Below are positions 999 through 29,655 of a stretch of 36,525 nt of DNA, piece by piece (the first letter of the stretch is position 1; each line of letters opens with the position of its first letter). Position numbers and translations under genes: made by a program. The notes beneath the pieces were generated by a model. That model saw only the letters and a list, made by a program, of their open reading frames with translations, was not told the DNA's origin and searched no databases. The stretch is from assembly GCF_006345805.1 (NCBI RefSeq), contig NW_021826251.1:1-36525 (forward strand), written 5' to 3'. The DNA comes from Octopus sinensis (taxonomy: Eukaryota).

Positions 999-1198
999 TT
1001 ATGTCTCCGACGGCTTCTGGTGTACTAAATTATACGTGTTCTTGGTTTCATCCTCATGAGTTTCTTTCTTGCTCCGACGTTTCCATATGAATATGACCCC
1101 GAGAATGATGATGCCAAATCCAGCTACACACAGGATGGCTATGGCATAGCCGGGTATGCCGGTTCCTGATCCATTACCTCCCCCACCTGTTGTTTCAG
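999..1198 (-). CDS. Coding exon 8 (Gly-rich stalk, transmembrane helix, cytoplasmic tail, stop)
   Basis: ctttgcag|CT GAA ACA...; ETTGGGGNGSGTGIPGYAIAILCVAGFGIIILGVIFIW-KRRSKK-ETHEDETKNTYNLVHQKPSET*; hydrophobic run followed by a basic stop-transfer cluster; phase-1 acceptor matches exon 7. Confidence 0.85.
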
Positions 1199-1383
1199 CT
1201 GCAAAGCATACACCATTTGTTTTTAATAAAAGATAGTAATATCTGCCAGGCTTATTCCTTTTGATACTATCATGTTCAAAACTGCCTTCGTTTCTATTGT
1301 ACAAATTCGTTGCTTTAAGGAGATCTAAAGTAAAAACTTCCATCAAAGTTTCAAGTAAATTTGTGTTCCAAACAATACCTTAA

Positions 1384-1603
1384 CCCTTTCATTACTGTAT
1401 TTATTTTGAGATGTTCTGTGTTTCTTTCAATTAATTTTAAATATAACAAAGAATTTTGTAAAATAACTTAGTTATCATTAAGCTAGTGTTAGGAACATAA
1501 ATTGTGACTAGGTTTGGTGGAAGATTTTAATTCAACACTTATGAAAACAAGGCATTTGTACTACAGAGCCAGACCGGTTTCAGCCAGGTTAGTATCAAAA
1601 GGG
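1384..1603. mobile_element. piggyBac-like MITE
   Basis: TTAA|CCCTTT...AAAGGG|TTAA ends (1380-1389, 1598-1607); a second AAAAGGGTTAA end at ~1694-1704; no ORF. Confidence 0.7.
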
Positions 1604-1749
1604 TTAAGAATGACAAAGTTATTTTACTAAATTATTTATTTTTTCAAAATTATTTAAACAAAGACAGTGTATTTAAACAGGAACATGGTAAGAAAAAGGG
1701 TTAACACACACCAGTATCCTAGACTATTATATCTAAATGATTAAATGTT

Positions 1750-4434
1750 CCTCTCAACACATGACTATGATGCTCCCCCACTACTTCTGCTCATGATCAG
1801 AGATGCACATATCGTCAGCCACTAAGGGTCATGCTCAACTGGTTATGGTCAAACAACTGACAAGCAAATCTGTGGTATTGAGCAGAATATTTGCTGTAAA
1901 ACATATCTTTTATACCAAGACAAAACAATGTACATGATAACACTTCCAATCAGTTAAGATCAGAAGCCATGAGAGCCACTGCCTGGTACTGCATCAGGGT
2001 ATTCAAACCCCAAAGAATCCCTCTCAACATATGACTATGATGCTCCCCCACTACTTCTGCTCATGATCAGAGATGCACATATCGTCAGCCACTAAGGGAC
2101 ATGCTCAACTGGTTTAAGGTCAAGCAACTGACAAGCAAATCTGTGGTATTGAGCAGAATATTTGCTGTAAAACCCATCTTTTATACCAAGACAAACAATG
2201 TACATGATAACACTTCAATCAGTTAGATCAGAAGCCATGAGAGCCACTGCCTGGTACTGCATCAGGGTATTCAAACCCCAAAGAATCCCTCTCAACATAT
2301 GACTATGATGCTCCCCCACTACTTCTGCTCATGATCACAGATGCCACATATCGTCAGCCACTAGGGACATGCTCAACTGGTTTAAGGTCAAGCAACTGAC
2401 AGCAAATCTGTGGTATTGAGCAGAATATTTGCTGTAAAACCCATCTTTTATACCAAGACAAACAATGTACATGATAACACTTCAATCAGTTCAGTTAAGA
2501 TCAGAAGCCATGAGAGCCACTGCCTGGTACTGCATCAGGGCATTCAAACCCCAAAGAATCCTTCTCAACATATGGCTATGATGCTCCCCCACAACTTCTG
2601 CTCATGATCAGAGATGCACATATCGTCAGCCACTAAGGGACATGCTCACTGGTTTAAGGTCAAGCAACTGACAAGCAAATCTGTGGTATTGAGCAGAATA
2701 TTTGCTGTAAAACCCATCTTTTATACCAAGACAAAAAATGTACATGATAACACTTCCAATCAGTTAAGATCAGAAGCCATGAGAGCCACGCTGGTACTGC
2801 ATCAGGGCATTCAAACCCCAAAGAATCCTTCTCAACATATGGCTATGATGCTCCCCCACTACTTCTGCTCTGATCAGAGATGCACATATCGTCCGCCACT
2901 AAGGGACATGCTCAACTGGTTTAAGGTCAAGCAACACTGACAAGCAAATCTGTGGTATTGAGCAGAATATTTGCTGTAAACCCTCTTTTATACCAAGACA
3001 AAACAATATTACATGATAACACTTCCAATCAGTTAAGATCAGAAGCCATGAGAGCCACTGCCTGGTACTGCATCAGGGTATTCAAACCCCAAAGAATCCC
3101 TCTCAACATATGACTATGATGCTCCCCCACTACTTCTGCTCATGATCAGAGATGCACATATCGTCAGCCACCAAGGGACATGCTCAACTGGTTATGGTCA
3201 AACAACTGACAAGCAAATCTGTGGTATTGAGCAGAATATTTGCTGTAAAACATATCTTTTATACCAAGACAAAACAATGTACATGATAACACTTCCAATC
3301 AGTTAAGATCAGAAGCCATGAGAGCCACTGCCTGGTACTGCATCAGGGTATTCAAACCCCAAAGAATCCCTCTCAACATATGACTATGATGCTCCCCCAC
3401 TACTTCTGCTCATGATCAGAGATGCACATATCGTCAGCCACTAAGGGACATGCTCAACTGGTTTAAGGTCAAGCAACTGACAAGCAAATCTGTGGTATTG
3501 AGCAGAATATTTGCTGTAAAACCCATCTTTTATACCAAGACAAAACAATGTACATGATAACACTTCCAATCAGTTAAGATCAGAAGCCATGAGAGCCACT
3601 GCCTGGTACTGCATCAGGGTATTCAAACCCCAAAGAATCCCTCTCAACATATGACTATGATGCTCCCCCACTACTTCTGCTCATGATCACAGATGCACAT
3701 ATCGTCAGCCACTAAGGGACATGCTCAACTGGTTTAAGGTCAAGCAACTGACAAGCAAATCTGTGGTATTGAGCAGAATATTTGCTGTAAAACCCATCTT
3801 TTATACCAAGACAAAACAATGTACATGATAACACTTCCAATCAGTTAAGATCAGAAGCCATGAGAGCCACTGCCTGGTACTGCATCAGGGCATTCAAACC
3901 CCAAAGAATCCTTCTCAACATATGGCTATGATGCTCCCCCACAACTTCTGCTCATGATCAGAGATGCACATATCGTCAGCCACTAAGGGACATGCTCAAC
4001 TGGTTTAAGGTCAAGCAACTGACAAGCAAATCTGTGGTATTGAGCAGAATATTTGCTGTAAAACCCATCTTTTATACCAAGACAAAACAATGTACATGAT
4101 AACACTTCCAATCAGTTAAGATCAGAAGCCATGAGAGCCACTGCCTGGTACTGCATCAGGGTATTCAAACCCCAAAGAATCCCTCTCAACATATGACTAT
4201 GATGCTCCCCCACTACTTCTGCTCATGATCAGAGATGCACATATCGTCAGCCACCAAGGGACATGCTCAACTGGTTTAAGGTCAAGCAACTGACAAGCAA
4301 ATCTGTGGTATTGAGCAGAATATTTGCTGTAAAACCCATCTTTTATACCAAGACAAAACAATGTACATGATAACACTTCCAATCAGTTAAGATCAGAAGC
4401 AATGAGAGCCACTGCCTGGTACTGCATCAGGGCA
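1750..4434. repeat. Tandem array, ~270-bp unit x10 (intron 7)
   Basis: Unit cctctcaacatatgactatgatgctcccccac...gcatcagggtattcaaaccccaaagaatc recurs at ~1750, 2020, 2288, 2560, 2827, 3099, 3369, 3639, 3910 and 4180 with near identity. Confidence 0.95.
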
Positions 4435-4442
4435 TCATCATT

Positions 4443-4665
4443 GAGGTTGTGAGCTGACAGAATTGTTGCTGCACCAGAAAAAATGCTCAGTGGAATTTCT
4501 CCTGACTCTTTAATTCCTGAGTTCAAATACTGCAACGGTCAGCTCTTTGCCTTTCATCCCTTTGGGGTTGATGAAATAAAGGACCCGCTAAATATATCCA
4601 AATTAATGTAATCGAGGAACCTCTTCCAAATGAAATTGCTGACCTTGTGCCAAAGTTAGAAAGAA
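4443..4665 (+). mobile_element. Old degenerate SINE-like element
   Basis: Degenerate A box (gagctgacagaattg), B-box-like gagttcaaatac, central ttgcctttcatccctttggggttgatgaaataa motif, followed by an (ATT)n tail. Confidence 0.5.
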
Positions 4666-4667
4666 CT

Positions 4668-4689
4668 ATTATTATTATTATTATTATTA

Positions 4690-4731
<42 letters not shown>

Positions 4732-4753
4732 TATTATTATTATTATTATTATT
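4668..4753. repeat. (ATT)n microsatellite
   Basis: Direct reading. Confidence 0.95.
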
Positions 4754-4773
4754 AGCAAAAGTAATTCACTTAC

Positions 4774-5022
4774 CTTTTATCTTTAAGGAATAATTTCCAG
4801 AGCAGAGATAGAAGTCACAAAAATACCAAGTCAAATCTTGTTTGGTGACATTTCGGATCAAAAGCTTCGATGAGTTACCATTTTGTGTAACTTCATGGTT
4901 ACTACGATTATAACAAGTCATATCACATTCATATCTTCCATAGTCATTTTTCCAGCCAACTATTCTTTTCATCCCGGCTACTTCAATATGAAGTGTGACA
5001 CTGCCCCCTAATGCAACTGGTC
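4774..5022 (-). CDS. Coding exon 7 (Ig-like domain 3, 249 nt)
   Basis: tatttcag|GA CCA GTT...ATA AAA G|gtaagt; PVALGGSVTLHIEVAGMKRIVGWKNDYGRYECDMTCYNRSNHEVTQNGNSSKLLIRNVTKQDLTWYFCDFYLCSGNYSLKIK. Confidence 0.9.
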
Positions 5023-5329
5023 CTGAAATAAAAAGACAAATCAATATTATTGATTGGTTTTCCATATGAAAGATTTCATCATCATTGCCATTTTAACACC
5101 TACTTTTCCTTGCTTGGGAGCAGAGTTTTCTTTGTGCATAACTGGACACTCTTCTGGTCCTAATATCCCAATCTATTGAGCAACAAAGAACCTGGATATG
5201 TTTTACCTAGTGGACTGGAAAGAAATCACACCATATAAACGAGCCTTTTGTTTACGAAGGTTGTGCAGAGTAGGATACAACAAAGTCACCATAGATGTAA
5301 TCATGTTGTACAGAAAAGTGTCACATTAA

Positions 5330-6370
5330 CAACTGATGTAGCAGCATTGTAGTCAGATTTATAAGCGTAAAGGAGATACTTTCAAATTGGTGGACCAGGT
5401 CAAGAAAGTTAGAGAGAGAGTTAAAGCCTAATTAATTAAAGACAGAATTAGACTAGATGAGATGCAGTTTGGTTTTCTGCCAGGAAGAAGGACTATTGAT
5501 GTCATCTTCTTAGTAAAACAACTGCAAGAGATGTATTTAGCCAAAAGTAAATCATTGCATTTGGTATTCGTTGACCTGGAGAAAGCTTTTGACATGATTT
5601 GGTGGTTTCTGAGGAAGCTTGGAGATTGGGCAACAAAAGTTCTCTCAGAGTGAAAGGCTCGTTGTATGATGCTTGTATATTTTTCTTTTTTTGTTTGATC
5701 CTTCTCGAGCCATGCCTGGCTCATAAGGGCCAGTTTCCCAGTTTCCTTGGTGTGTAGGTTCCCCACCTGGACGGGACGCCGGTCCGTCGCAGGTGAGCTG
5801 CAAGATGCAGGAAGAAAGAGTGAAAGAAAGTTGTGGCGAAAGAGTCAGCAGAAGTTCGCCATTACCTTCTGCCGGAGCTGCGTGGAGTTTAGGTGTTTCA
5901 CTCATAAACACACACATCGCCCGGTCCGAGATTCGAACCCATGATCCCTCGACTGCAAGTCCGCTGCTCTAACCACTAGGCCATGTGCCTCCACAATGCT
6001 TGTATATAAACAGCAATGCTACATTATAGTGAGAGATGGGCCCTAAGTGCAAAGAACATGCAAAGACTAGAGAGGAATAAAGCTAGTATGCTCCATTGGA
6101 ATTGCCATGTCAGTGTACATACAAAACAATGTATTAAGGCATCAAAAGAAAAGTTAGGCAAAAGAGGAAACAGAGGTAGTGTACAGAAAAGGGGACAGCA
6201 CTGGTTTGGGGGTCATGCGATGTGTATGGATAGGGTCAGCTGCTTAAGGAAGTGCTTCAAGTGAATGGGACTTGTTGATGAGGGAAACCCAGGAAGACAT
6301 GGGACAAAGTAGTGAAGGCTGATCTCAAGATGCTGAGCCGGTTGGAGATGACAAAAAACTGGGATGATTG
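5330..6370 (+). mobile_element. Degenerate RTE-clade LINE reverse-transcriptase fragments
   Basis: QFGFLPGRRTIDVIFLVKQLQEMYLAKSKSLHLVFVDLEKAFD (RT motifs QFGF and FVDLEKAFD), then C-terminal MLHYSERWAL...HWFGGH and GKPRKTWDKVV; interrupted by stops and a SINE. Confidence 0.85.
5681..5995 (-). mobile_element. tRNA-derived SINE nested in the RTE fragment
   Basis: Head GTGGAGGCACATGGCCTAGTGGTTAGAGCAGCGG...GGGTTCGAATCTC; A-rich tail; 12-bp TSD atgcttgtatat (5669-5680, 5996-6007). A 5'-truncated plus-strand relative lies at ~24765-24948. Confidence 0.85.
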
Positions 6371-6852
6371 ACAAAACACAATGATTCAGACATCATCTTT
6401 TGCTGTCAATCACAGCAAAAAATGATGTCCTAAATGCATTCTGTTTATGCTCGTAAACCATTCTTCTGCCTCCTCAAGCATTCCCCACATCTCTTTCCCT
6501 TTAACACCCAGTTCTCCATCACTCATCTGTCTCTGGCATTAATCAAGGGCTGCATTCATTTGGAAGCAGAATCGTCACATATTACTCCACACCATTTTCT
6601 TTCCATTGCCATTTATTTCCCTCCCACCCTGCCAGAACAACTCCATCCCTTATTTCCAATATCCCTTCTTCCTTTCCCACACTAACTTCACTGGTCACAC
6701 TCATTCTGCACTTTCAGTTATCTCCCCTTCTCTTCAACCCTTGGAATTGACGAAGTCCTGCAGCCTGTCGGAACCTTTATAACTGTCCAACTCATGCCAG
6801 CATCGAAGGAGGCCATTAAATGGTGATGGTAATTTTTTGTGATCTCCAAAGG

Positions 6853-8447
6853 AAACATTATAAGCGGAAAGTGTAACCTCTCGAAAGAGCTGTTCTTCAC
6901 TCCTGCTCCAGAGCGTAGGCTGCGGGGTCACTCTGAAAAGCTCTATCTGCGACGATTTCATCTCAATCGAAGGAGAGGGGCTTTCTCCGTCTGGGTTGCG
7001 GATCCGTGGAATAAGCTGCCGGACGAGATAGTGAAGATGCCGACAACCGCTCGGTTCAAGGTCTCTCTTGACCAGAAATGGCCTGAACTCTTTGCATGAA
7101 CACCACCCTGTACATAATTCCATGTCCCCCTACATGGCCTTGCTTTTGCTTTTTGAGCCAATAAAAATTGAATTGAATTGAATTGAATATATATATATAT
7201 ATAAAGCTCTATCTACGACGATTTCATCTCAATCGAAAGAGAGGGGCTTTGTCCATCCAGGTTGTGGATCCGTGGAATAAGCTGCCGGATGAGATAGTGA
7301 AGATGCCGACAACCGCTCGGTTCAAGGTCTCTCATTACCAGAAATGGCCTGAACTCTTTGCATGAACACCACCCTGTACATAATTCCATGTCCCCCTACA
7401 TGGCCTTGCTTTTTGCTTTTTGAGCCAAATAATTAACTCAACTTAACTTAACTAACCTGTACAGCTAAGCGCTTTATAAATGCAAGACTGATGGTAAATG
7501 ACCATAACAAATGACCTTCTAAATATAAATATAGGCATAGGGGTGGCTGTGTGGTAAGACGCTCGACCTTTATTCTCTATAGAGGGGCTTTCTCCGTCCG
7601 GGTTGCGGTACCGTGGAATAGGCTGCCGGACAAGATAGTGAAGATGCCGATGACCGCTCGGTTCAAAGTCTCTCTTGACCAGAAATGGCCTGAACTCTTT
7701 GCATGAACACCCTCCCTGTACATAACTCCATGTCCCTCTACATGGCCTTGCTTTTGCTTTTTGAGCCAATAAAAATTGAATTGAATTGAATTGAATATAT
7801 ATATATATTATATATATATATATTATATATATATATATATATATAATATATATATATATAAAGCTCTATCTATGACGATTTCATCTCAATCGAAAGAGAG
7901 GGGCTTTTTCCGTCTGGGTTGCGGATCCGTGGAATAAGCTGCCGGACGAGATAGTGAAGATGCCAACAACCGCTCGGTTCAAGGTCTCTCATGACCAGAA
8001 ATGGCCTGAACTCTTTGCATGAACACCCTCCCTGTACATAACTCCATGTCCCCCTACATGGCCTTGCTTTTTGCTTTTTGAGCCAAATAATTAACTTAAC
8101 TTAACTTAACTAACCTGTACAGCTAAGCGCTTTATAAATGCAAGACTGATGGTAAATGACCATAACAAATGACCTAAATATAAATATAGGCATAGGGGTG
8201 GCTGTGTGGTAAGATGCTCGACCTTTATTCTCTATAGAGGGGCTTTTTCCGTCCGGGTTGCGGATCCGTGGAATAAGCTGCCGGACGAGATAGTGAAGAT
8301 GCCGACGACCGCTCGGTTCAAAGTCTCTCTTGACCAGAAATGGCCTGAACTCTTTGCATGAACACCTTCCCTGTACATAACTCCATGTCCCCCTACATGG
8401 CCTTGCTTTTGCTTTTTGAGCCAATAAAAATTGAATTGAATTGAATT
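6853..8447 (+). mobile_element. Cluster of CR1/L2-type LINE 3' ends, tandemly duplicated (~658-bp period)
   Basis: RRLRGHSEKLYLRRFHLNRRRGAFSVWVADPWNKLP...QKWPELFA*, with 3'UTR ending in (AATTG)n or (TTAAC)n; five copies here, a sixth at 10491-10747. Confidence 0.85.
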
Positions 8448-8628
8448 CATCATCATCATCGAATATATATATATATATAATATATATATATATAAGAAAA
8501 TAGTAAAGTGTGAAAAAACGACAGAAGGCTTAAATGTTATAAAATATATATATTTGTGTCAAAATGTCTGGAGAATATTGGAAAAATTTTTTTCGTTTCC
8601 TTAAAATGACATAATTTTAAAATTTTTA

Positions 8629-8668
8629 AAGAAATTACCGGTTTCGCGTGTAGCTTTTCAAATTTCTT
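8629..8668 (-). ncRNA. Minimal type I hammerhead ribozyme motif (U3-A8 variant)
   Basis: aagaaat UUGAAAA gc-uacac-gc GAAA CCGG UA auuucuu: 7-bp stem I, short stem II, palindromic ACCGGU stem III. Confidence 0.7.
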
Positions 8669-10229
8669 GTGACGTTATGTTTATATTGTATGGAATTATC
8701 GTTGTTTTTATTTCCAGGAGATTTCTAAATAAGGGGAGGTAGTGAGTGATTTTTTCCGGTGTAGGGGAGATACTCGCTTAAAAAATTTTTTTTCCATTTC
8801 CTTGTTAATTTCTCTGTGTCAGTATGTTCGGATGGTTGAGTCTGGGTTTGTACTTTTCAATGAAGAATGTTTCCTTGTTCAGTCTCATTTGTGTTGATGA
8901 TCCGAAAGTACATTGGTAAAATGGGAAGATTAAAAATTGTGGCAGTAGTTGCTTTGCGCATTTCTCAATGTGCTCACTAAAAGGTATCATTCTATATTCT
9001 GGGAATGCAATCTGTTGTCGATGCAGTGTGCATCTGCGCCTGAGTGATAGTCCCGTGGAACCTCAGTAGTTTTGGTTCATGGGGTAGTAGTGATTTGTGT
9101 GTGGTGTATTTCTTATCCTAGTGTCGTATTGTGCTGTATGGTGGTTGGGTCTGGTATTATGATGTTGTTGGTTTGTTCTGTTTTTGGTGTAATTTCTTTC
9201 ATAGACGCGTCCTCTTTCAGCTAGTTCCCTGTTAGGTCTAGCGTGGTTTGTAGAGGTTGGTTGTGGGTGATTTCTGTTTTTAGTGTATGGAGGATAGTTG
9301 GGGGTTGTTCGTGGGTTGTTAGGTTTTTCTTTTTTATTTATTGTAATTTTCTTAAGGAAGGGATTATTTGTACCCAATTCATTTTTGAAGGTTTCACTAT
9401 ATTTTTGGAAGAAGTCCATGTTTTTCTCCCAGCGTAGGAGAGAATTTCTCTCTTCTCTCTCACAGGAATCCTTCCAGTGATCCAATGTATTATCGAGGGG
9501 TTGTCCCTCGGTATATTTTTTTGATTGTGCATCTCCTCGTCTATGCTTTTAAGTTTTTCTTCATTTGTGGAGGCCCTGAGTCTTAGAAGCTCTATTTCTG
9601 ATTTAAAATTGAACAGAGCTGACTTTTCTCTAATAGATCTCTGTCCGTCAGGCTCGTTAGGAATTAATTTTATCTGGAATTTGCGTGGGAGGATAATTGG
9701 TGTTGAGTTTATCCATCCCTCGTAGATATCTGCTTTGTTGGAATTTTTTATCATGTTCCAGAAGGTGAGTTTTCTGTTGTGCAGGTTTGTATTCCAAACG
9801 TTTCCTATTTTTCTTTTTGTTGGGTTGGTTTGGGTGCGTATGGTATCCTGCTGTGTATCCTGCAGATGCACACTGCATCGACAACAGATTGCATTCCCAG
9901 AATATAGAATGATACCTTTTAGTGAGCACATTGAGAAATGCGCAAAGCAACTACTGCCACAATTTTTAATCTTCCCATTTTACCAATGTGCTTTCGGATC
10001 ATCAACACAAATGAGACTGAACAAGGAAACATTCTTCATTGAAAAGTACAAACCCAGACTCAACCATCCGAACATACTGACACAGAGAAATTAACAAGGA
10101 AATGGAAAAAAAATTTTTTAAGCGAGTATCTCCCCTACACCGGAAAAAATCACTCACTACCTCCCTTATTTAGAAATCTCCTGGAAATAAAAACAACGAT
10201 AATTCCATACAATATAAACATAACGTCAC

Positions 10230-10269
10230 AAGAAAATTGAAAAGCTACACGCGAAACCGGTAATTTCTT
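10230..10269 (+). ncRNA. Minimal type I hammerhead ribozyme motif (second Penelope arm)
   Basis: aagaaaa TTGAAAA gctacacgc GAAA CCGG TA atttctt; one stem I mismatch relative to the other arm. Confidence 0.6.
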
Positions 10270-10490
10270 TAAAAATTTTAAAATTATCATTTAAGGAAAG
10301 GAAAAAAATTTTTCCAATATTCTCCAGACATTTTGACACAAATATATATATTTTATAACATTTAAGCCTTCTGTCGTTTTTTCACACTTTACTATTTTCT
10401 TATATATTCACCCACGTGCTTTACCAAACAAACTTTCGTATCTATATATATATATATATATATATAATTATATATATATATATATATATA

Positions 10491-10747
10491 AAGCTCTATC
10501 TATGACGATTTCATCTCAATCGAAAGAGAGGGGCTTTTTCCGTCCGGGTTGCGGATCCGTGGAATAAGCTGCCGGACGAGATAGTGAAGATGCCGACGAC
10601 TGCTCGGTTCAAGGTCTCCCTTGACCAGAAATGGCCTGAACTCTTTGCATGAACACCTTCCCTGTACATAACTCCATGTCCCCCTACATGGCCTTGCTTT
10701 TTGCTTTTTGAGCCAAATAATTAACTTAACTTAACTTAACTTAACTT
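10491..10747 (+). mobile_element. CR1/L2-type LINE 3' end
   Basis: Near identical to 7861-8112; (TTAAC)n tail. Confidence 0.85.
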
Positions 10748-10874
10748 GAGCTGATCAGAGAAAGGTTTTAAAAAGTGGTTAAAAACTATGATTTATGAGA
10801 AAGAAATAGAAGGCAGAATTGAAAAGATAGGGTCTAGTATAAAAGAGGAAAAAAAGGTCTGTCAGTCTATTTAC

Positions 10875-10913
10875 CACTTTGAGTAATTTTGTAAATTTCT
10901 GTTCTTGTTGAAC
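10875..10913 (-). CDS. Coding exon 6 (39-nt mini-exon of domain 3)
   Basis: tttttcag|GT TCA ACA AGA ACA GAA ATT TAC AAA ATT ACT CAA AGT G|gtaaat = STRTEIYKITQS; phase 1-1. Confidence 0.85.
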
Positions 10914-10989
10914 CTGAAAAAGAAGAAAACAAAAATTTTTCATTTTCGGATTTTACATTTGATCGTCAAGATTGATTGCAGTTTATGCT

Positions 10990-11270
10990 AAATCGGAATC
11001 GAAATTGAACCAAATCCTATGACTGGCACCAGCCGTTGCCAGTGCCGCTGGACTGACCCCTGTGCAGGTGGCAAGTAAAGAAACACCGTTTCGGCCCCGT
11101 GCTTGAGGAGACCTATTGAGTCAAGTACATCAACATCAAAAATCAATGGAAATTGTAGTTGTGATCCCTGTGCCGGTGGCGCGTAAAAAGCACAAATTCG
11201 ATCATGGCCGTTGCCAGCCTCGCCTGGCACCTGTGCCAGTAGTACATAAAAAGCACCCACTACACTCATG
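10990..11270 (+). mobile_element. RTE-type LINE 3'UTR fragment
   Basis: Reverse complement of the gtgccaccggcacagg / gacgaggctggcaacggcc ~60-bp repeat family seen at 13330-13735 and 20075-20900. Confidence 0.65.
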
Positions 11271-11358
11271 GACAAAACCCTTTGTAACTTTTGTCCTGTG
11301 TTTTGTCCCTTTATGTTTTAATTAATTTTTATCAGCCCTTGTGGCCAATAAAAGAATT

Positions 11359-11748
11359 AATTATTATTATTATCATTATCATTAATAATTATGAATTATT
11401 ATTATTATCATTAATTATGATGAATTATTATTATTGTTATTATTATTATTATTAATTATTATCATTAATTATTATGAATTATTATTATTATTATTATCAT
11501 TAATTATCATTATTATTATTATCATTAATTATTATGAATTATTATTATTATTATTATTAAATTATTATGAATTATTATTATTATTATTATGAATTATTAT
11601 TATTATTATTAATATTATTACTTATTATGAATTATTATTATTATTATCATTAATTATTATGAATTATTATTTTTTTTTTTTACCGCCGCCGCCACCACCA
11701 CCACCGCCTCCATCATCATCATCATCATCATCATTATCATTATTATAA
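11359..11748. repeat. Degenerate (ATT)n tract plus compound (CCG)(CCA)(TCA)(TTA) microsatellite
   Basis: Direct reading. Confidence 0.9.
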
Positions 11749-11765
11749 TAAATCATTTCCCTTAC

Positions 11766-12014
11766 TGTGAATCTTCAAATCAAATTTTGATGATTCCAAA
11801 TTATCGTCTTCAAATTTCCAAGTCAATCGTTCCTTTGTTACGTTTCGGATCCAAAAAGTCGATATATCTCCATCCTGCGTCACTCTGTATTCGGGGCTGT
11901 TAGCGCATGTCCGATCACACTCATATTTATAATTGTTGAATTTCCAAACGGTCGGTCTTAACATGTTTGGTATTTTAATCAGTAGAGTAGCGCTTACACT
12001 GAGTGCACCATTAT
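11766..12014 (-). CDS. Coding exon 5 (Ig-like domain 2, 249 nt)
   Basis: tttcag|AT AAT GGT...ATT CAC A|gtaagg; NGALSVSATLLIKIPNMLRPTVWKFNNYKYECDRTCANSPEYRVTQDGDISTFWIRNVTKERLTWKFEDDNLESSKFDLKIH. Confidence 0.9.
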
Positions 12015-12063
12015 CTGAAATGTAAGTATAATAATTAAAGAAATCACAAACGCAAACTCAAAC

Positions 12064-12284
12064 ACAGGAGTGGCTGTGTGGTAAGTAGCTTGCTTACCAA
12101 CCACATGGTTCCGGGTTCAGTCCCACTGCGTGGCATCTTGGGCAAGTGTCTTCTACTATAGCCCCGGGCCGACCAATGCCTTGTGAGTGGATCTGGTAGA
12201 CGGAAACTGAAAGAAGCCCGTCGTATATAGGTACAGGAGTGACTGTGTGGTAAGTAGCTTGCTTACCAACCACATGGTTCCGGG
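12064..12284 (+). mobile_element. Abundant tRNA-derived CORE-like SINE, 5' portions
   Basis: ggagtggctgtgtggtaag (A box)...gggttcagtccc (B box)...cttgggcaagtgtcttct (CORE-like motif). Confidence 0.8.
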
Positions 12285-12816
12285 CAATACAATAGAAAAT
12301 ACTTGATCGAAAATGAAGGATGCTTTCATTTCATTATTAGAAGAATGCGTAGGGTGTGTAAACAGAAAGAATGAGACTTGATCACGAGAGACACTAATAG
12401 CCTTAGAAGTAAGAAAGAAGCGAAAGGAAAAATTACAATTGGCAAGCTTAGAAGTAGAGATAAATAAATGTCAGGGAAATTAGAAAATAAGGAAGTTAAA
12501 AAACAATTAAGAGACAAGCAAAAATATTTTGAAAATTTAGCAAAGACAGCAGAAAGTGCAGCTCAGGGCCAGAACACGAAAGAGTTGTACAACACAAGTA
12601 AATTAATATTGAGAAGAGAGTAAGAGTATAAAAGGCAGTAAAAGGGAAGGGTGGCCGGATGCTAAGATTAATTCTAGATCAAAAAAAAAATCGATGGAAG
12701 GAGCATTTTGAAGATTTGCTCAGTAGACTACCTCCAGACACAATAGCTAAGATTGTGCCAAGAAATTTGGATCTTAACATCAGCCTTGACCCACCGTCCA
12801 AGTTTGAAATAAGAAA
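12285..12816 (+). mobile_element. Degenerate RTE-clade LINE ORF fragment (EN-RT linker)
   Basis: Translates to DKQKYFENLAKTAESAAQGQNTKELYNTSK...RWKEHFEDLLSRLPP...NISLDPPSKFEIRK; RWxEHFxxLL is typical of RTE ORFs. Confidence 0.7.
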
Positions 12817-15000
12817 GTTAAAAAACAATTAAGAGGCAAGCGAAAATATTTTGAAAAGCAAAAGATTGGCTAAAAGTTATGAGTTGAGGGAAAGAAATAG
12901 AAGACGGAACTGAAAAGGTAATGCCTAGTTTAAAAGGGGAGAAAAGGGTTTGTTAATACCGGATGCAAGGCAATACAATAGAATATACGTGGTCGAAAAT
13001 GAAGGGTGCTTTCATTTCATTATTAGAAGAATGCGTAGAGTGTGTAAACAGAAAGAATGAGACTTGATCACGAGAGACACTAATAGCCTTAGAAGTAAGA
13101 AAGAAGCTAAAGGAAAAATTACAATTGGCAAGCTTAGAAGTAGAGATAAATAAATGTCAGGGAAATTACAACCAACAAAATATCATCATCATTTAGCATC
13201 TACTTTCCATGCTAGCATGGGTTGGACGGTTCAACTGGGGTCTGGGAAGCCAGAAGGCTGCACCAGGCCCAGTTTGATCTGGCAATGTTTCTATGGCTGA
13301 ATGCCCTTACTAATGCCAACCGCTCCGTGAGTGTAGTGGATGCTTTTTATGTGCCACCGGCACAGGTGCCAGACGAGGCTGACAAACATCCACAATCGGG
13401 TGGTGCTTTTTACGTGCCACCGGCAAGGGGGCCAGATGAGGCTGGCAACGGCCACAAACGGATGGTGCTTTTTATGTGCCACTTGCACAGGTGCCAGACG
13501 AGGCTGGCAAACGGCCACAAATGGATGGTGCTTTTTATGTGCCACCTGCATAGGTGCCAGACGAGGCTGGCAAACATCCACAATCGGATGGTGCTTTTTA
13601 CATGCTACCTGCATAGGTGCCAGATGAGGCTGGCAAACGGCCACAATCGGATGGTGCTTTTTACATGCCACCAGCACGAGGCCAGTCAGGGTGGCGCTGG
13701 CAATGGCCACGTTCGGCAGGAGGCCAGTCGGGGCGGTTAAAAAACAATTCAGAGACGAGCGAAAATATTTTGAAAAGCAAAAGATTGGCTAAAAGTTATG
13801 AGTTGAGGGAAAGAAATAGAAGATGGAACTGAAAAGGTAATGCCTAGTTTAAAAGGGGAGAAAAGGGTTTGTTAATACCAGATGTAAGGCAATACAATAG
13901 AATATACGTGGTCGAAAATGAAGGGTGCTTTCATTTCATTATTAGAAGAATGCGTAGAGTGTGTAAACAGAAAGAATGAGACTTGATCACGAGAGACACT
14001 AATAGCCTTAGAAGTAAGAAAGAAGCTAAAGGAAAAATTACAATTGGCAAGCTTAGAAGTAGAGATAAATAAATGTCAGGGAAATTACAACCAACAAAAT
14101 ATCATCATCATTTAGCATCTACTTTCCATGCTAGCATGGGTTGGACGGTTCAACTGGGGTCTGGGAAGCCAGAAGGCTGCACCAGGCCCAGTCTGATCTG
14201 GCAATGTTTCTACGGCTGGATGCCCTTCCTAATGCCAACCGCTCCGTGAGTGTAGTTGGGAGCTTTTTACGTGCCACCTGCACAGGTGCCAGATGAGGTT
14301 GGCAACGTCCACAATCGGGTGGTGCTTTTTACGTGCCACCGGCAAGGGGGCCAGGTGAGGCTGGCAACGGCCACGAATGGATGGGGCTTTTTACATGCCA
14401 CCGGCAAGGGGGCCAGATGAGGCTGGCAACGGCCACAATCGGGTGGTGCTTTTCACGTGCCACCGGCAAGGGGGCCAGGCGAGGCTGGCAACGGCCACGA
14501 ACGGATGGTGCTTTTTACATGCTACCTGCATAGGTGCCAGATGAGGCTGGCAAACGGCCACAAATGGATGGTGCTTTTTACATGCCACCTGCATAGGTGC
14601 CAGACGAGGCTGGCAAACAGCCACAATCGGATGGTGCTTTTTACATGCCACCGACACGGGGGCCAGGCGATGCTGGCAAACGGCCACGATCGGATGGTGC
14701 TTTTTATGTGCCACCTGCATAGGTGCCAGACGAGGCTGGCAAACAGCCACAATCGGAGGTGCTTTTTACATGCCACCTGCATAGGTGCCAGATGAGGCTG
14801 GCAACGGCCACGAATGAATGGTGCTTTTTATGTGCCTCCAGCACGAGGCCAGTCAGGGTGGTGCTGGCAATGGCCACGTTCGGCAGGAGGCCAGTCGGGG
14901 CGGTTAAAAAACAATTCAGAGATGAGCGAAAATATTTTGAAAAGCAAAAGATTGGCTAAAAGTTATGAGTTGAGGGAAAGAAATAGAAGATGGAACTGAA
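12817..15000. repeat. Local tandem duplication (~0.92 and ~1.17 kb units) with embedded ~60-bp minisatellite
   Basis: gttaaaaaacaatt...gcgaaaatattttgaaaagcaaaagattggc recurs at ~12817, 13736 and 14903; the units differ in the number of 60-bp repeats. Confidence 0.9.
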
Positions 15001-15049
15001 GTTACAGTGTCTTGTTTAAAAGGAGAAAAAGGCTTGTTAATTCATTTAC

Positions 15050-15088
15050 CATTTTGGATAATTTCATAAGTTTCTGCTTTTCTGAAAC
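15050..15088 (-). CDS. Coding exon 4 (39-nt mini-exon of domain 2)
   Basis: cttttacag|GT TTC AGA AAA GCA GAA ACT TAT GAA ATT ATC CAA AAT G|gtaaat = FRKAETYEIIQN; phase 1-1. Confidence 0.85.
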
Positions 15089-15248
15089 CTGTAAAAGATG
15101 AAGAATAAAGTTTTGATTTTCAGATTTAACATTTGAGCAACATGGTTATAGCCAGGTCCAGCCTGTCACACCTCCTCTACAATGCCAGTCCAAAGATAAA
15201 CAATCATATCATTAAAATGTCAAAAGAAGATAATGAGAACAAACAGAT

Positions 15249-15288
15249 CGCCGCCGCCGCCGCCGCTGCCACCACCACCACCACCACC

Positions 15289-15322
<34 letters not shown>

Positions 15323-15517
15323 TCATCATCATTATTATTATTTTTATCATTATTATATTTATTATTGTTATTATTGTTATTATTATTGTTATTATTATTA
15401 TTATTATTGTTATTATTATTATCATCATCATCATCATCATTATTATTATTATTGTTATTGTTATTATTATTATTATTATTGTTATCATTATTATTATTGT
15501 TATTATTATTATTATTA

Positions 15518-15550
<33 letters not shown>
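15249..15550. repeat. Compound (CCG)n(CCA)n(TCA)n(TTA)n microsatellite
   Basis: Direct reading. Confidence 0.95.
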
Positions 15551-15552
<2 letters not shown>

Positions 15553-15566
15553 AATCATTTCCTTAC

Positions 15567-15815
15567 CATTTGTCTTCAAATCAAATTTTCCAATGTTGTA
15601 GTTGTTGTCATGAAATGTCCAATCCAAAAGTTCCTTAGTTACCTTTCGGATCCAGAGAGAAGAAGAATTTCCACTCTGTGTCACTCTAAATTCAGCCCCT
15701 TTATCGCATACGTTGTCACACTCATACTTCCGAGTCCCACACCTCCACGTGACTGGTCTCTCCATATTTGGTACCTCAATGTGGAGAGTAGTATTTCCAT
15801 TGAGGACAACATTTT
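15567..15815 (-). CDS. Coding exon 3 (Ig-like domain 1, 249 nt)
   Basis: tttcag|AA AAT GTT...ACA AAT G|gtaagg; NVVLNGNTTLHIEVPNMERPVTWRCGTRKYECDNVCDKGAEFRVTQSGNSSSLWIRKVTKELLDWTFHDNNYNIGKFDLKTN; lies within ORF 15220..15918. Confidence 0.9.
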
Positions 15816-15831
15816 CTGAAATAAAGAAATC

Positions 15832-16075
15832 AGGTAAGAAGTTTGCTTTCCAACCACATGGTTCTGGGTTCAGTCCCACTGTGTGACACCTTGGGCAAGT
15901 GTGTTCTACTATAGCCACAGTCTGACCACTGTTGGTGTGTTTACATCCCTATAGCTTAGCAGTTTGGCAAAAGAGACCAACAGAATAAGTACTGGGGTTG
16001 GTTCATTCAGCTAAAACTTCTTCAAGGTGTTGCTCCAGCATGGCTGCAGTCTAATTACTAAAACAGGTAAAAGAT
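15832..16075 (+). mobile_element. CORE-like SINE, degenerate copy
   Basis: Head and 3' motifs (gctccagcatggctgcagtc...actaaaacaggtaaaaga). Confidence 0.7.
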
Positions 16076-16376
16076 CATCATTGTTATAATGCCTACTTTT
16101 CCACGCTTGAATGGATCAGAGTTTATGAGCGAAACACCTAAGCTCCCCGATGAGTGTTTCTAGTTCTTCGGCCTTGCTCAATGAGAAACGCCGAAGAGAG
16201 ATAACTCTGGGTAGATTCAAAGTTGTAACTTTATCTAAAGAACAGTCACTTTAAAGAAATCAAAAACCACAAATGGAGCAGAGAATAAACCTGTGAACTA
16301 AGAAAAAGAGATACAAGACAGATTTGAAAATACAGGATCTAGTTTAAAAGGGAAAAAGATTTGTTAATCCATTTAC

Positions 16377-16415
16377 CAGTTCGGAAAATTTTATAAATTT
16401 GTGCTTTCGTCAAAC
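16377..16415 (-). CDS. Coding exon 2 (39-nt mini-exon; end of signal peptide and A-strand of domain 1)
   Basis: cttttacag|GT TTG ACG AAA GCA CAA ATT TAT AAA ATT TTC CGA ACT G|gtaaat = LTKAQIYKIFRT; phase 1-1; homologous to the exons at 15050-15088 and 10875-10913. Confidence 0.85.
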
Positions 16416-16536
16416 CTGTAAAAGACAAAAATGAAAATATTTGATTTTCAGAATTTACATTTGATCATCAGGATTGTTTATTATTTATGTTATAATAATT
16501 AAATAATAATTAACACTTGTAGATATAATTATGCAT

Positions 16537-16925
16537 TGTGTGGTAAGTAGCTTGCTTACCAACCACATGGTTCCAGGTTCAGTCCCACTGCATGGCACCT
16601 TGGGCAAGTGTCTTCTGCTATAGCCCCGGGCCGACCAATGCCTTGTGAGTGGATTTGGTAGACAGAAACTGAAAGAAGCCTGTCGTATATGTATATATAT
16701 ATATATATGTGTGTGTGTTTGTCCCCCTAGCATTGCTTGATAACCGATGCTGGTGTGTTTACGTCCCCGTCACTTAGCGGTTCGGCAAACGAAACTGATA
16801 GAATAAGTACTGGGCTTACAAAGAATAAGTCCCGGGGTCGATTTGCTCGACTAAAGGCGGTGCACCAGCATGGCCACAGTCGAATGACTGAAACAAGTAA
16901 AAGAGTAAAAGAGTAAAGAGAGTAA
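16537..16925 (+). mobile_element. CORE-like SINE, near full length
   Basis: tRNA head, central (TA)/(TG) tract, 3' ggcggtgcaccagcatggccacagtcgaatgactgaaacaagtaaaa and (GAGTAAA)n tail. Confidence 0.85.
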
Positions 16926-16930
16926 CATGT

Positions 16931-17303
16931 GGTACAGGTGCAAGAGTGGCTGTGTGGTAAGGAGCTTACTTACTAACCACATGGTTCTGGGTTCAGTCCC
17001 ACTGTGTGGCACCTTGGGCAAGTGCTTTTGGATCTTTTCGGTTTGAATGGCAGTTTTTAAAAATAATTTCCACGTAACTAAACACTTTTAAACTTCGTAT
17101 ACTGGTAGAATGCCAAGAGAAAAAAATGTTTTATTTTGACACATTCTACCGGTATACTAAGTTTTAAAGTGTTTAGTTAACTAGAAATTGTGTTGACATG
17201 TGCCGTTCAAAAGGAAAAGAACCGAAAACACTTGCCCAAGGTGTCACACAGAGGGACATGTGGTTGGTAAGCAAGCTTCTTACCACACAGCCACTCCTGC
17301 ACC

Positions 17304-17372
<69 letters not shown>

Positions 17373-17550
17373 TATATATATATACGATGGGCTTCTTTTA
17401 GTTTCCGTCTACCAAATCCACTCACAAGGCTTTGGTTGGCCCGAGGCTATAGCAGAAAACACTTGCCCAAGGTGCCATGCAAGGGGACTGAACCCAGAAC
17501 CATGTGGTTGGTAAGCAAGCTTCTTACCACATGGCCACTCCTGCACCTAT
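16931..17550. mobile_element. SINE-head/MITE-end palindrome (16931-17305) plus a minus-strand SINE head
   Basis: Plus SINE head + GGATCTTTTCGGTTTGAATGGCAG end, mirrored by gccgttcaaaaggaaaagaacc + minus SINE head; a further minus head at ~17380-17550. Confidence 0.7.
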
Positions 17551-17794
17551 AGAATTTTTTTAAATGCTCAAGATTTACAGCTTAGACATTTCGTATTTGT
17601 GTTTCTATCACAGATGCCATCTAAGGATGAGTCTGAAGTCAAAACAATGATAAGGATGATACAAGCACTATTGTGATATGATTGTTGCCATATTGGTTTA
17701 GACCAAATAAATAAGATGATACATTTATAAAAATAAAAGTGAAAAACTAGCAGAAAAAAATTATTCACTAAGGTTATGTAAATTGTTTTTTTTT

Positions 17795-18195
17795 TTAATT
17801 TTATTTTATCTAGTTTCAGCTCACGAGCTGTGGCCATGCTGGGGCACCGCCATTTGGTGTTGCTACATGATTTTATTTCACGAATGCTTTTTAGCAATTG
17901 ACATTTGGTGCATAAGAGAGTTCAATGCAGCTGCCCTCATCTGCACCTCCTGCCGTGAAGTTGGTTCATCCGGGACACCTGACAAGAAGAGATCCAGTCC
18001 TACTTTAAAGACATCCGCATCCACCCCATGCAGGTCCCTCAGGTTCTTCGGGAGGATATTGAAGAGCTGTGGGCCTCTGAAGCCCAGGCTATCACAGTAT
18101 CTTGTCCTACATCTTGATGGCAAATTTGGAGTCTTTGGCACCACGCAGTGGCACCCAGTTCTGGCATTTGTGTAACTCTTGATGCCTAAGTTTGG
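17795..18195 (-). mobile_element. CR1/L2-group LINE 3' end
   Basis: NARTGCHCVVPK...SLGFRGPQLFNILPKNLRDL...FKVGLDLFLSGVPDEP...RAAALNSLMHQ*, short 3'UTR and (TAAAA)n tail. Confidence 0.75.
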
Positions 18196-18295
18196 GACAA
18201 ATGATATGTAAAACAATTATTTTTAGAAAAATAATTAATGTTAATGAAAAAGAATTTAATAAACAAAAATAAAACAAATATGAAAGAAAACTTAC

Positions 18296-18338
18296 AAAAA
18301 CACAATGCAAACACACAAAAAAACTGTGGACTGCCCAT
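18296..18338 (-). CDS. Coding exon 1 (signal peptide) of 3xIg-like type I membrane protein
   Basis: Minus strand reads ttttttacag|ATC ATG GGC AGT CCA CAG TTT TTT TGT GTG TTT GCA TTG TGT TTT T|gtaagt = MGSPQFFCVFALCF plus a phase-1 donor. It joins the next exon as TGT (C), giving MGSPQFFCVFALCFCLTKA/QIY. The acceptor 3 nt before the ATG implies an upstream 5'UTR exon that I could not locate. Confidence 0.8.
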
Positions 18339-18351
18339 GATCTGTAAAAAA

Positions 18352-19896: not shown

Positions 19897-21270
19897 ATCA
19901 TCATCATCATCATCATCATCATCATTTAACGTCCGCTTTCCATGCTAGCATGGGTTGGACGGTTCAACTGGTGTCTGGGGAGCCCGAAGGCTGCACCAGG
20001 CCAGTCAGATCTGGCAGTGTTTCTACAGCTGGATGCCCTTCCTAACGCCAACCACTCCGAGAGTGTAGTGGGTGATTTTATGTGCCACCGACACAGGTGC
20101 CAGACGAGGCTGGCGAACGGCCACGCTCGGATGGTGTTTTTATGTGCCACCGACACAGGTGCCAGACGAGGCTGGCAGATGACCACGCTCGGATGTGTGT
20201 TTTTATGTGCACCGACACAGGTGCCAGACGAGGCTGGCGAACGGCCAGCTCGGATGTGTTTTTATGTGCCACCGACACAGGTGCCAGACAAGGCTGGCAG
20301 ATGACCACGCTTCGGATGGTGTTTTTTTTTTATTGTGCCACCGACACAGGTGCCAGATGAGCTGGCGAACGGCCACGATCGGATGGTGTTTTTATGTGCC
20401 ACCGACACAGGTGCCAGACAGGCTGGCAGATGACCACGCTCGGATGGTGTTTTTATGTGCCACAGACACAGTGCCAGACGAGGCTGGCGAACAGCACGCT
20501 CGGATGGTGTTTTTATGTGCCACCGACACAGGTGCCAGACAAGGCTAGCAGACGACACGCTCGGATGGTGTTTTTATGTGCCACCGACACAGGTGCCAGA
20601 CGAGGCTGGCGAAAGCCACGCTGGATGGTGTTTTTATGTGCCACCGACACAGGTGCCAGACAAGGTTAGCAGACGACCACGCTCGGATGGTGTTTTTATG
20701 TGCCACAGACACAGGTGCCAGACGAGGCTGGCGAACGGCCACGCTCGGATGGTATTTTTATGTGCCACCAACACAGGTGCCAGACAAGGCTAGCAGACGA
20801 CCACGCTCGGATGGTGTTTTTTTTATGTGCCACCGACACAGGAGCCAGATTTGGCTGGCGATCGGCCACGATTGGGTGGTGATTGTTACGTGCCCACAGC
20901 ATGGAGGCCAGTCGGTGCGGTACTGGCTACACCCACGTTCGGATGGTATTCTTGTGTGTCACCGGCACTGGTACCACAAAGATACAAATTCCATTGATGT
21001 TCATCTATTTTGATTTTGTTTGATTTTCACTTGCCTCAACAGGTCTTCACAAGTGTCACAAGAAGGAAGGTATGCACAGGTGGACTGACTACGTCCTAGG
21101 TAGGGGCCACGGGTTATGGCCTGACTAGTCTTGCCGGGTCTTCTCACGCACAGCATACTTCCATAGGTCTCGGTCTCTAGTCATTTCCTTGGTGAGACCT
21201 AAAGTTCGTAGGTCGTGCTTCACCACTTCGTCCCAGGTTTTCCTGGGTCTACCTCTTCCACAGGTTCCCT
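19897..21270 (-). mobile_element. RTE-clade LINE 3' end with long repeat-containing 3'UTR
   Basis: Minus-strand EGTCGRGRPRKTWDEVVKHDLRTLGLTKEMTRDRDLWKYAVREKTRQD* (~21270-21125), 3'UTR with ~60-bp repeats, (GAT)n tail. Confidence 0.85.
20075..20880. repeat. ~61-bp minisatellite x~13 inside the LINE 3'UTR
   Basis: tatgtgccaccgacacaggtgccagacgaggctggcgaacggccacgctcggatggtgttt; alternating gcgaacgg / gcagatga variants. Confidence 0.95.
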
Positions 21271-22500: not shown

Positions 22501-22608
22501 GATAGATATATCATTGAGAACAATAGATTTAGTTGGTCTTGTTATCTATTCTAGCTTTTGGTGAAGTAGAAGAGGTTAGAAAGGGTCAAGTGGTGAAGAC
22601 ATTATTTC

Positions 22609-23521
22609 GGCCTAGCTAAAGGCATCTGGAAAATGTAAAACTGCTGTCAGAGAAAAACCATTGTTCCACCGTGGGAAAAGTTCTGTTGCAGTGTTAATTT
22701 AAATTTGGCTGTGGTGGATCAAATCCACTTCATGCAAGCAAGATTCGTTACATATTGATAAACGTAATTCATTACCTCTTCCTTACTTTCTGGCCTAGCT
22801 AAAGGCATCTGGAAAATGTAAAACTGCTGTCAGAGAAAAACCATTGTTCCACCGTGGGAAAAGTTCTGTTGCAGTGTTAATTTAAATTTGGCTGTGGTGG
22901 ATCAAATCCACTTCATGCAAGCAAGATTCGTTACATATTGATAAACGTAATTCATTACCTCTTCCTTACTTTCTGGCCTAGCTAAAGGCATCTGGAAAAT
23001 GTAAAACTGCTGTCAGAGAAAAACCATTGTTCCACCGTGGGAAAAGTTCTGTTGCAGTGTTAATTTAAATTTGGCTGTGGTGGATCAAATCCACTTCATG
23101 CAAGCAAGATCGTTACATATTGATAATGTAATTCATTACCTCTTCTTACTTTCTGGCCTAGCTAAAGGCATCTGGAAAATGTAAAACTGCTGTCAGAGAA
23201 AAACCATTGTTCCACCGTGGGAAAAGTTCTGTTGCAGTGTTAATTTAAATTTGGCTGTGGTGGATCAAATCCACTTCATGCAAGCAAGATTCGTTACATA
23301 TTGATAAATGTAATTCATTACCTCTTCCTTACTTTCTGGCCTAGCTAAAGGCATCTGGAAAATGTAAAACTGCTGTCAGAGAAAAACCATTGTTCCACCG
23401 TGGGAAAAGTTCTGTTGCAGTGTTAATTTAAATTTGGCTATGGTGGATCGAATCCACTTCATGCAAGCAAGATTCGTTATGTATTGATAAACGTAATTCG
23501 TTACCTCTTTCTTACTTTCTT
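22609..23521. repeat. Tandem array, ~183-bp unit x5
   Basis: ggcctagctaaaggcatctggaaaatg at ~22609, 22792, 22975, 23155 and 23338. Confidence 0.95.
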
Positions 23522-25602: not shown

Positions 25603-25788
25603 TTAACCATGCATAAACATGTTTGTATAGGAAATAAACCATATCACTGCGATGTCTGTGGTTAGGCATTCTCAGTAAGTCATGGGTTGACTAAACACAA
25701 ATGTATTCATACAGGAAAGAAACTATATGACTATCACATCTGTAGTGAGTAGTTCTCTTAAGTAGATCACTTAACTAAACAAAAATAG
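25603..25788 (+). pseudogene. C2H2 zinc-finger relic (~2 fingers)
   Basis: LTMHKHVCIGNKPYHCDVCG*AFSVSHGLTKHKCIHTGKKLYDYHICSE*FS*VDHLTKQK*; CxxC...HxxxH spacing and HTGEKPY-like linkers with in-frame stops. Confidence 0.8.
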
Positions 25789-29475: not shown

Positions 29476-29655
29476 TGAGGGGAAGTCAAAAATTACCTGC
29501 ACTTTCACCATAACGTATCTTTATTGTTGTTACACTGCTTTCCTCGTATGGTGCTTACGGTTGGTACTATTGTGGTTATGTGATCGAAGTTTGAACATGA
29601 TCACGCCATTTTTCTTTCTGCAATATGCACTGAAAAAGAACAAAGAACAGGTTCC
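29476..29655 (+). mobile_element. Possible mariner-like 5' end relic
   Basis: gaggggaagtcaaaaattacctgcac resembles a mariner TIR; downstream LSAICTEKEQRT resembles a mariner transposase N-terminus (CTxEEQRxV); highly degenerate. Confidence 0.4.

Follow-up and report, generated by a model that had tools for sequence, protein, structure and literature searches.

An octopus gene family of predicted immunoglobulin-fold receptors without the canonical core cysteines

What kind of receptor is built from immunoglobulin (Ig)-like domains that carry neither cysteine of the canonical disulfide between strands B and F? The question is raised by a minus-strand gene of Octopus sinensis in a stretch of 36,525 nucleotides (contig NW_021826251.1, positions 1 to 36,525), hereafter the window. 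Its eight exons splice into 1107 nt encoding 368 amino acids (aa) and a stop, laid out as putative signal peptide, three domains, transmembrane (TM) segment and tail. The three tandem domains are predicted Ig folds, which by fold and Pfam score would place the gene in a degenerate family of the Ig superfamily (IgSF). The reading we favour, with a probability of roughly 0.45, is that of a diversifying recognition receptor, most likely immune: a single-pass surface protein binding variable ligands through exposed loops.

Gene structure

All seven introns of the eight-exon model are GT-AG and in phase 1. The spliced product is that of the uncharacterised RefSeq gene LOC115227428, being identical to XP_029654121.1 (isoform X1) from residue 7 and to XP_029654122.1 (isoform X2) from residue 3. 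A preliminary description, made from the sequence alone, had proposed this in-frame, 368-aa signal-three domain-TM-tail protein and recognised no named gene, and on both points it agrees with the annotation. Its gene extent, 999..18341, is correct for the eight exons and too short upstream, where the RefSeq isoforms take their first residues from an exon ending at 29497; a GT three bases past the ATG at 29511 would yield isoform X2. The exons are as follows.

29497..29511, minus strand: 3' end of the upstream first coding exon (MVKVQ of RefSeq isoform X1), with ATG at 29511, frame and GT donor
18296..18341, minus strand: putative signal-peptide exon, with AG acceptor before 18341, in-exon ATG at 18338 and hydrophobic N-terminus
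16377..16415, minus strand: 39-nt mini-exon, predicted strand A of domain 1; joint to the next exon seen in public contigs
15567..15815, minus strand: 249-nt body exon of predicted Ig domain 1, with YECDNVC at 15726-15706 and unpaired C59 (splicing, AlphaFold model, public contigs)
15050..15088, minus strand: 39-nt mini-exon, predicted strand A of domain 2 (splicing)
11766..12014, minus strand: 249-nt body exon of predicted Ig domain 2, with YECDRTC at 11925-11905 (splicing, AlphaFold model)
10875..10913, minus strand: 39-nt mini-exon, predicted strand A of domain 3 (splicing)
4774..5022, minus strand: 249-nt body exon of predicted Ig domain 3, with YECDMTC at 4933-4913 and the extra pair C294/C299 (splicing, AlphaFold model)
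999..1198, minus strand: last exon, with Gly-rich stalk, TM helix (~1148-1083), 27-aa tail with YNLV (1034-1023) and stop

Each 96-aa unit is thus encoded by one mini-exon and one body exon. The three units are mutually identical at 42-45 of 96 residues, and their third codon positions are the least conserved. After domain 3 come a 17-aa stalk and the TM segment, whose exon (999-1198) is single copy in the genome search. Eight N-glycosylation sequons are present in the protein.

Splicing was checked in public contigs over 15560-16430, which covers intron 2; for the remaining junctions the support is the RefSeq model. Contigs of all four runs (three presumed to be RNA, the fourth of unknown type) bridge the intron. 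In runs X1, X5 and X6 they connect 15815 to 16377 with ends of the splice type, and run X15 shows this joint too, differing in one letter. Runs X1 and X6 show zero mismatches across the exon, while run X5 carries paralogue-type letters. The junction check suggested by the preliminary description came out positive at this intron. The exons' equal lengths and intact frames, the 78 related exons found genome-wide and the contig-supported joint argue that the model is not a product of chance, and an artefact of repeats or chance open reading frames was rejected on these grounds.

Predicted fold and core residues

Do the repeated units adopt an Ig fold, as had been proposed? The whole protein scores 35.5 bits against the Pfam I-set family PF07679 (curated cut-off 23.7). 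Single exons fall below this cut-off (domain 3, 22.3 bits; domains 1 and 2, no match), and no more than 5 of 50 family exons match a given Ig family at E 0.1. Because single exons and most copies fall short of Ig profiles, the genes are labelled uncharacterised and annotation misses the family.

Structure prediction supports the proposal. An AlphaFold model built on a 17-sequence alignment had a mean predicted local distance difference test (pLDDT) score of 66, with 66-91 in the domain cores and below 50 in the mini-exon strands. Strands B, C, C', D, E, F and G were predicted in every unit, forming a two-sheet beta-sandwich in V-frame order. Ig structures led the search lists: the top Foldseek matches of the whole protein were titin I-set tandems (E 1e-9), and domain 3 matched antibody heavy-chain variable (VH), CD8, Kirrel3, obscurin and I-set chains in VIA (Z 10-11, root-mean-square deviation (rmsd) 2.4-2.9, ~90 aa). 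The family domain of P0045, an O. bimaculoides relative 51% identical to domain 2, was predicted with a pLDDT of 90-97 and on its own matched Kirrel3 Ig5 (Z 11.3, rmsd 1.9, 85 aa). In the P0045 model a short strand A comes from the mini-exon region, and strand C' stops at the first loop cysteine, with one bridge at the second. The B position is separated from F by 55 residues, an I-set-sized spacing. Other searches were less specific: sequence searches of the PDB gave weak matches only (titin, E 0.15; antibody chains, E 0.02 or worse), and a viral fold search returned generic Ig proteins. Atlas matches serve as leads only (mollusc hypothetical clusters, 0.93-0.94; adenovirus E3 and V-set clusters, 0.94). 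A complex prediction with two ectodomain copies scored 0.00, which counts neither for nor against.

The core of the predicted fold departs from the canonical pattern. Residue counts were taken over 58 distinct intact family exons, none of which has a cysteine at the B or F position (0/58), as the preliminary description had reported for the window gene. The F position is Phe (F67) in 56 exons. The tyrosine-corner motif DxGxY is absent, its Tyr position being Trp (W65) in 56/58 within a motif shorter by one residue. Nor is the CD-EF salt bridge present: of 50 exons, 24 have Cys and 12 have Asp at the Asp position, and D/E/N prevail at the Arg position. The canonical feature that is kept is the C-strand Trp (57/58; W57, W153 and W249 in the window protein). 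Canonical V-set or I-set identity was rejected for want of the B-F cysteines, DxGxY and salt bridge. Pairwise alignment may put C294 of domain 3 at the F position, a placement disfavoured by the conserved W65 and F67 pattern and by the lack of a B-strand partner.

Several motifs had been assigned to all three window domains. TLHI/TLLI/TLHI, LxWxF(H/E/C)D and YECDxxC are present as described. LGGSVTL occurs in domain 3 and is replaced by LNGNTTL in domain 1 and LSVSATL in domain 2. YECDxxC, taken to be invariant, is so within the window protein; it is exact in 38 of the 58 family exons, and the family-wide constants are its two cysteines alone.

These two cysteines form a C'-loop pair (CxxxC or CxxxxC) in 58/58 exons, the first at a fixed place in all 58 and the second in 55, with 3 shifted by one place. 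Their conservation and their site at the end of strand C' fit a disulfide. Further cysteines come mostly in pairs, although the counts ignore kinship among exons: positions 25/62 hold both cysteines in 25 exons, neither in 28 and one in 5, and positions 68/73 both in 12, neither in 41 and one in 5. The window protein has such a second pair in domain 3 (C294, C299). In VH, the Asp of DxGxY contacts the residue two after the Trp; since position 62 corresponds to this Asp, a 25/62 disulfide is plausible. All disulfides in the family are putative.

The preliminary description overstated the absence of the B-F disulfide, which is no rarity in itself. Many Ig domains lack it, including those of a 41-gene cnidarian family, as set out in PMC9546547. 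With this precedent in Hydractinia Alr, the interest lies in the octopus family and its evolution; the family may be a further independent case of Ig domains swapping a core disulfide for peripheral ones.

An octopod family and its evolution

How large is the family, and how does it vary? Genome exon searches gave 77 and 78 matches, both lower bounds. At least 78 related exons are present in O. sinensis, 66 of them with an open frame and AG/GT ends; the remaining 12 are not intact, as in birth-and-death families. The 66 intact exons comprise 58 distinct sequences, six groups being identical in DNA, and some copies may be haplotigs. A chromosome-scale contig, C27, holds 35 of the 78 exons, 18 of those within 16.1-16.9 Mb. 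Another 30 are spread over 15 high-numbered contigs (13 of them 15-85 kb), and the last 13 over six further large contigs. In O. vulgaris, nine relatives all sit on a contig of the same length, 34.56 Mb, so the window contig is likely part of the family cluster.

Relatives outside O. sinensis were sought with a profile search of 1.84 billion representatives, which matched 48 proteins. The 22 that were identified included 15 from Octopus, 2 from Argonauta hians, 2 from Haliotis rufescens and 3 others; the other 26 were 10 short, family-like proteins and 16 long repeat proteins, of which the two scanned had canonical Ig repeats. No squid or cuttlefish protein occurred among the 22 identified matches in this clustered library, the remaining 26 not having been looked up, and a search with P0058 of Argonauta returned only itself. 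The named relatives are octopods, plus a weaker abalone look-alike, in agreement with the lineage-restricted receptor family first proposed. No literature was retrieved for 18 LOC identifiers, and none on this family by topic, in a search whose scope left out subscription journals and supplements, so that a prior mention is possible; the gene is annotated but unstudied, and the family apparently undescribed.

Members carry 1-5 domains. The closest O. bimaculoides protein shares 75-76% domain identity and the same three-domain order. Core residues and splice sites are tightly conserved across family exons; TM segments and tails diverge far more than ectodomains. Tails vary (P0029, P0037, P0066), some ending in VEV or DEV, which we take to be PDZ-type, and one having two SIYNMM repeats; members may accordingly differ in signalling. 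Dispersed relatives, unlike the window gene, have a cysteine-rich second, C2-like domain, and the dispersed exons form one clade in an unrooted tree. Two such V-C2 members of O. sinensis (C5:47027720-47036132 and C5:133338792-133353962) consist of a family exon followed 7-15 kb downstream, on the same strand, by two cysteine-rich C2-like exons.

Annotated isoforms vary in exon use. Among P0003, P0025, P0027, P0029 and P0030, a mini-exon is skipped or two occur consecutively; as all exons are phase 1, skipping one leaves the frame intact and would remove or exchange strand A. The isoforms of LOC115225115 (P0023-P0025) combine differing first domains with shared later domains over ~300 kb at C27:16.29-16.60 Mb (exons L019, L021, L024, L026, L064, L065, L077), where several TM-like exons sit between domain exons. 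They reflect genuine combinatorial splicing over a long range or, alternatively, merged gene models.

Selection was assessed by site models, in our own implementation on fixed trees, over the 58 exons. The ratio of nonsynonymous to synonymous rates (omega) was 0.61 overall. Models allowing positive selection fitted better, by twice the log-likelihood difference (2dlnL), for M2a over M1a (29.7) and M8 over M8a (23.2), with omega 2.1-2.5 at 5-6% of sites; this is the paralogue comparison that the preliminary description had recommended. The selected exon positions, 11, 26, 47 and 72, fall in strand B and the CC', DE and FG loops. Null simulations (n=16) reached a 2dlnL of at most 5.2. The signal was kept in both halves with their own trees (6.9 and 15.8) and after collapse to 43 sequences more than 5% apart (27.6). 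On short branches, omega was 0.9-1.3.

The window gene is also a mosaic of its paralogues. Where P0010 and P0018 differ, it sides with P0010 by 35 to 3 in domain 1 and by 22 to 0 in domain 3, and with P0018 by 14 to 8 across mini-exon 2 and domain 2. Its exon DNA and intron DNA match different neighbours. On three small contigs, near-identical copies of domain 3 are joined to different domain 2 and TM sequences. A comparable switch was observed in P0009 of O. vulgaris, which changes from the LOC115231260 type to the window-gene type within domain 2 (residues 155-170), likely a conversion or recombination tract.

The surrounding DNA has features of its own. A 271-bp tandem repeat (9.9 copies, 96% matches) occupies 1750-4432 of the window, inside the last intron, and further tandem arrays lie at 13341-14830, 20071-20894, 22605-23520 and 31907-33774. 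A decayed C2H2 zinc-finger-like stretch, spotted by eye, lies on the plus strand at 25604-25760, within the first intron. Elsewhere, P0046 (C4 near 39.57 Mb; 'zinc finger protein 239-like' in RefSeq) joins C2H2 fingers to a family exon and is probably a merged gene model.

Candidate functions and known systems

How might such a receptor work? Ile, Trp and Phe would fill the domain core in place of Cys-Trp-Cys, braced by a putative C'-loop disulfide and by optional C-strand/EF-loop and F-G pairs. Symmetric phase-1 exons would allow units to be duplicated, swapped or skipped in frame. Selection would diversify four surface positions, and the variable loops would bind ligand. The short tail (YxxV) may steer the protein, or cargo bound to it, into the cell, or act through a partner with weak or indirect signalling. 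The family probably arose from a nectin/B7-like two-domain (V-C2) receptor, the first domain having been tandemly repeated.

Several points weigh against the recognition receptor. An overall omega of 0.61 with near-unity values on short branches also fits relaxed constraint in young copies. Gene conversion, present here, can inflate site tests, and ours used our own code on a fixed tree. The four selected positions are not clearly on one face, the window protein was modelled with moderate confidence, and kinship may contribute to the cysteine co-occurrence. The tree behind the V-C2 origin is unrooted. The immune label draws on the evolutionary pattern, and receptors for neural, self or gamete recognition may show the same one. 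The tail has no immunoreceptor tyrosine-based inhibitory or activation motif (ITIM or ITAM): its only tyrosine motif is YNLV, with Asn at -2, which differs from the consensus [ILVS]xYxx[ILV] or paired YxxL/I given in PMC9546547.

The best-surviving rival, which we consider unlikely, is a neural or tissue adhesion code in which paralogues bind each other in trans, in the style of Dpr/DIP, nectin or Kirrel, and label cell types. The three-Ig type I layout suits it, the Foldseek list includes DIP, IgLON, NCAM and sDscam Ig1-3, and the V-C2 relatives match nectin and Neph1/Kirrel. However, these fold matches are generic (10-18% identity), the window protein lacks a C-terminal PDZ-type end, and positive selection, broken copies and the degree of divergence from O. 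bimaculoides indicate faster change than is usual for wiring receptors. Octopus protocadherins are likewise expanded in clusters, a point in favour of this code; they are listed with zinc fingers and chemotactile receptors among the known octopus expansions in PMC9068888, the main text of which does not contain the word 'immunoglobulin'.

Somewhat less probable again is a self/non-self or gamete marker with polymorphic, allele-specific homophilic binding like that of Hydractinia Alr1/Alr2, for example in skin, suckers or gametes. The near-identical third domains on three small contigs could be alleles, although one assembly cannot tell alleles from paralogues, and octopuses do not fuse as colonies. 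The design is that of the Alr complex as portrayed in PMC9546547 (unusual IgSF genes in a cluster, lacking B-F cysteines, with 1-3 domains, tails that diverge, pseudogenes and splice variants), yet the Fn3-like spacer and ITAM/ITIM are missing. We regard as a long shot the more ambitious proposal of a clustered, recombining, alternatively spliced octopod Ig complex in which split strand-A and body exons give combinatorial ectodomains and a polymorphic, Alr- or KIR-like self/non-self code; if true, such a code could underlie skin self-recognition by suckers or immune discrimination in octopus. The weakest rival, ordinary structural or glycocalyx membrane proteins duplicated in tandem in a repeat-rich region and varying by drift, gene conversion and assembly duplication, is improbable: the DNA-identical exon groups point to duplicates or haplotigs, short-branch omega is near 1, sequons are numerous and several members have very short tails, but in five data cuts neutrality failed under the site models, both the core residues and the splice sites are constrained, and the domain order is common to O. 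bimaculoides.

This clustered, positively selected Ig family supplies a tangible candidate for variable recognition, immune or self, in cephalopods. The review PMC11999971 names no such candidate there and does not mention octopus, cephalopod or squid. Membership of the molluscan FREP-type Ig-lectins that it describes was rejected, as Pfam found only Ig families on the window protein (P0001) and no C-terminal fibrinogen or lectin domain.

How, then, does the family compare with known systems? Like CD2/SLAM, CEACAM and adenovirus E3 CR1, the gene encodes a type I protein with short Ig domains in tandem, and E3 CR1-beta was the first Atlas match for the whole protein (0.94), a lead only. V-type domains without a B-F disulfide occur in CD2/SLAM, CEACAM N-domains and E3 CR1. 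Those families are vertebrate or viral, gave no sequence match and lack the family-specific C'-loop pair. CD2/SLAM proteins combine a V domain with a disulfide-bonded C2 domain and a tail that is proline-rich or has an immunoreceptor tyrosine-based switch motif (ITSM); membership was rejected, as the window gene has no C2 domain and its tail NTYNLV is neither ITSM nor ITIM.

Nectin, Kirrel/Neph, CD200R and B7/butyrophilin are represented among the best structural matches of two-domain P0045 (Z 11.5-12.7, tied; nectin-3, CD200R, butyrophilin and Neph1 at 11.9-12.7). Identity is 10-17%, and the window gene lacks the C2 domain, canonical disulfide and Tyr corner. Membership was rejected, since the window gene has no V-then-C2 arrangement with canonical disulfides and the fold match concerns P0045 only.

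Closer in lineage are two uncharacterised proteins of Haliotis rufescens, LOC124119024 and LOC124122840, which the family profile matched at E 5e-17 and 5e-5 over repeats. In both, tandem domains sit on a type I protein, CxxxC comes after the C-strand Trp, and DAGTWxI replaces DxGxYxC. Unlike the octopus family, they keep canonical E-F spacing and have a different extra cysteine pair. The alignment spans ~49 columns only (hhalign probability 48%), and homology beyond common Ig ancestry is not established.

Hydractinia Alr offers the fullest likeness. Its proteins, in the account given in PMC9546547, are clustered single-pass IgSF members with 1-3 degenerate V/I-set domains, replaced B-F cysteines, non-canonical disulfides, divergent tails, pseudogenes and splice variants. 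The octopus gene differs in keeping the C-strand Trp and in lacking the six-cysteine pattern and ITAM/ITIM of Alr; membership was rejected because the stalk and TM segment directly follow domain 3, with no Fn3-like spacer bearing the six invariant cysteines that the same source describes. No Alr protein was recognised among the 22 identified of the 48 profile matches. On present evidence Alr is an analogue, not a homologue, and it is the Alr complex that the octopus family would most resemble in the way it works.

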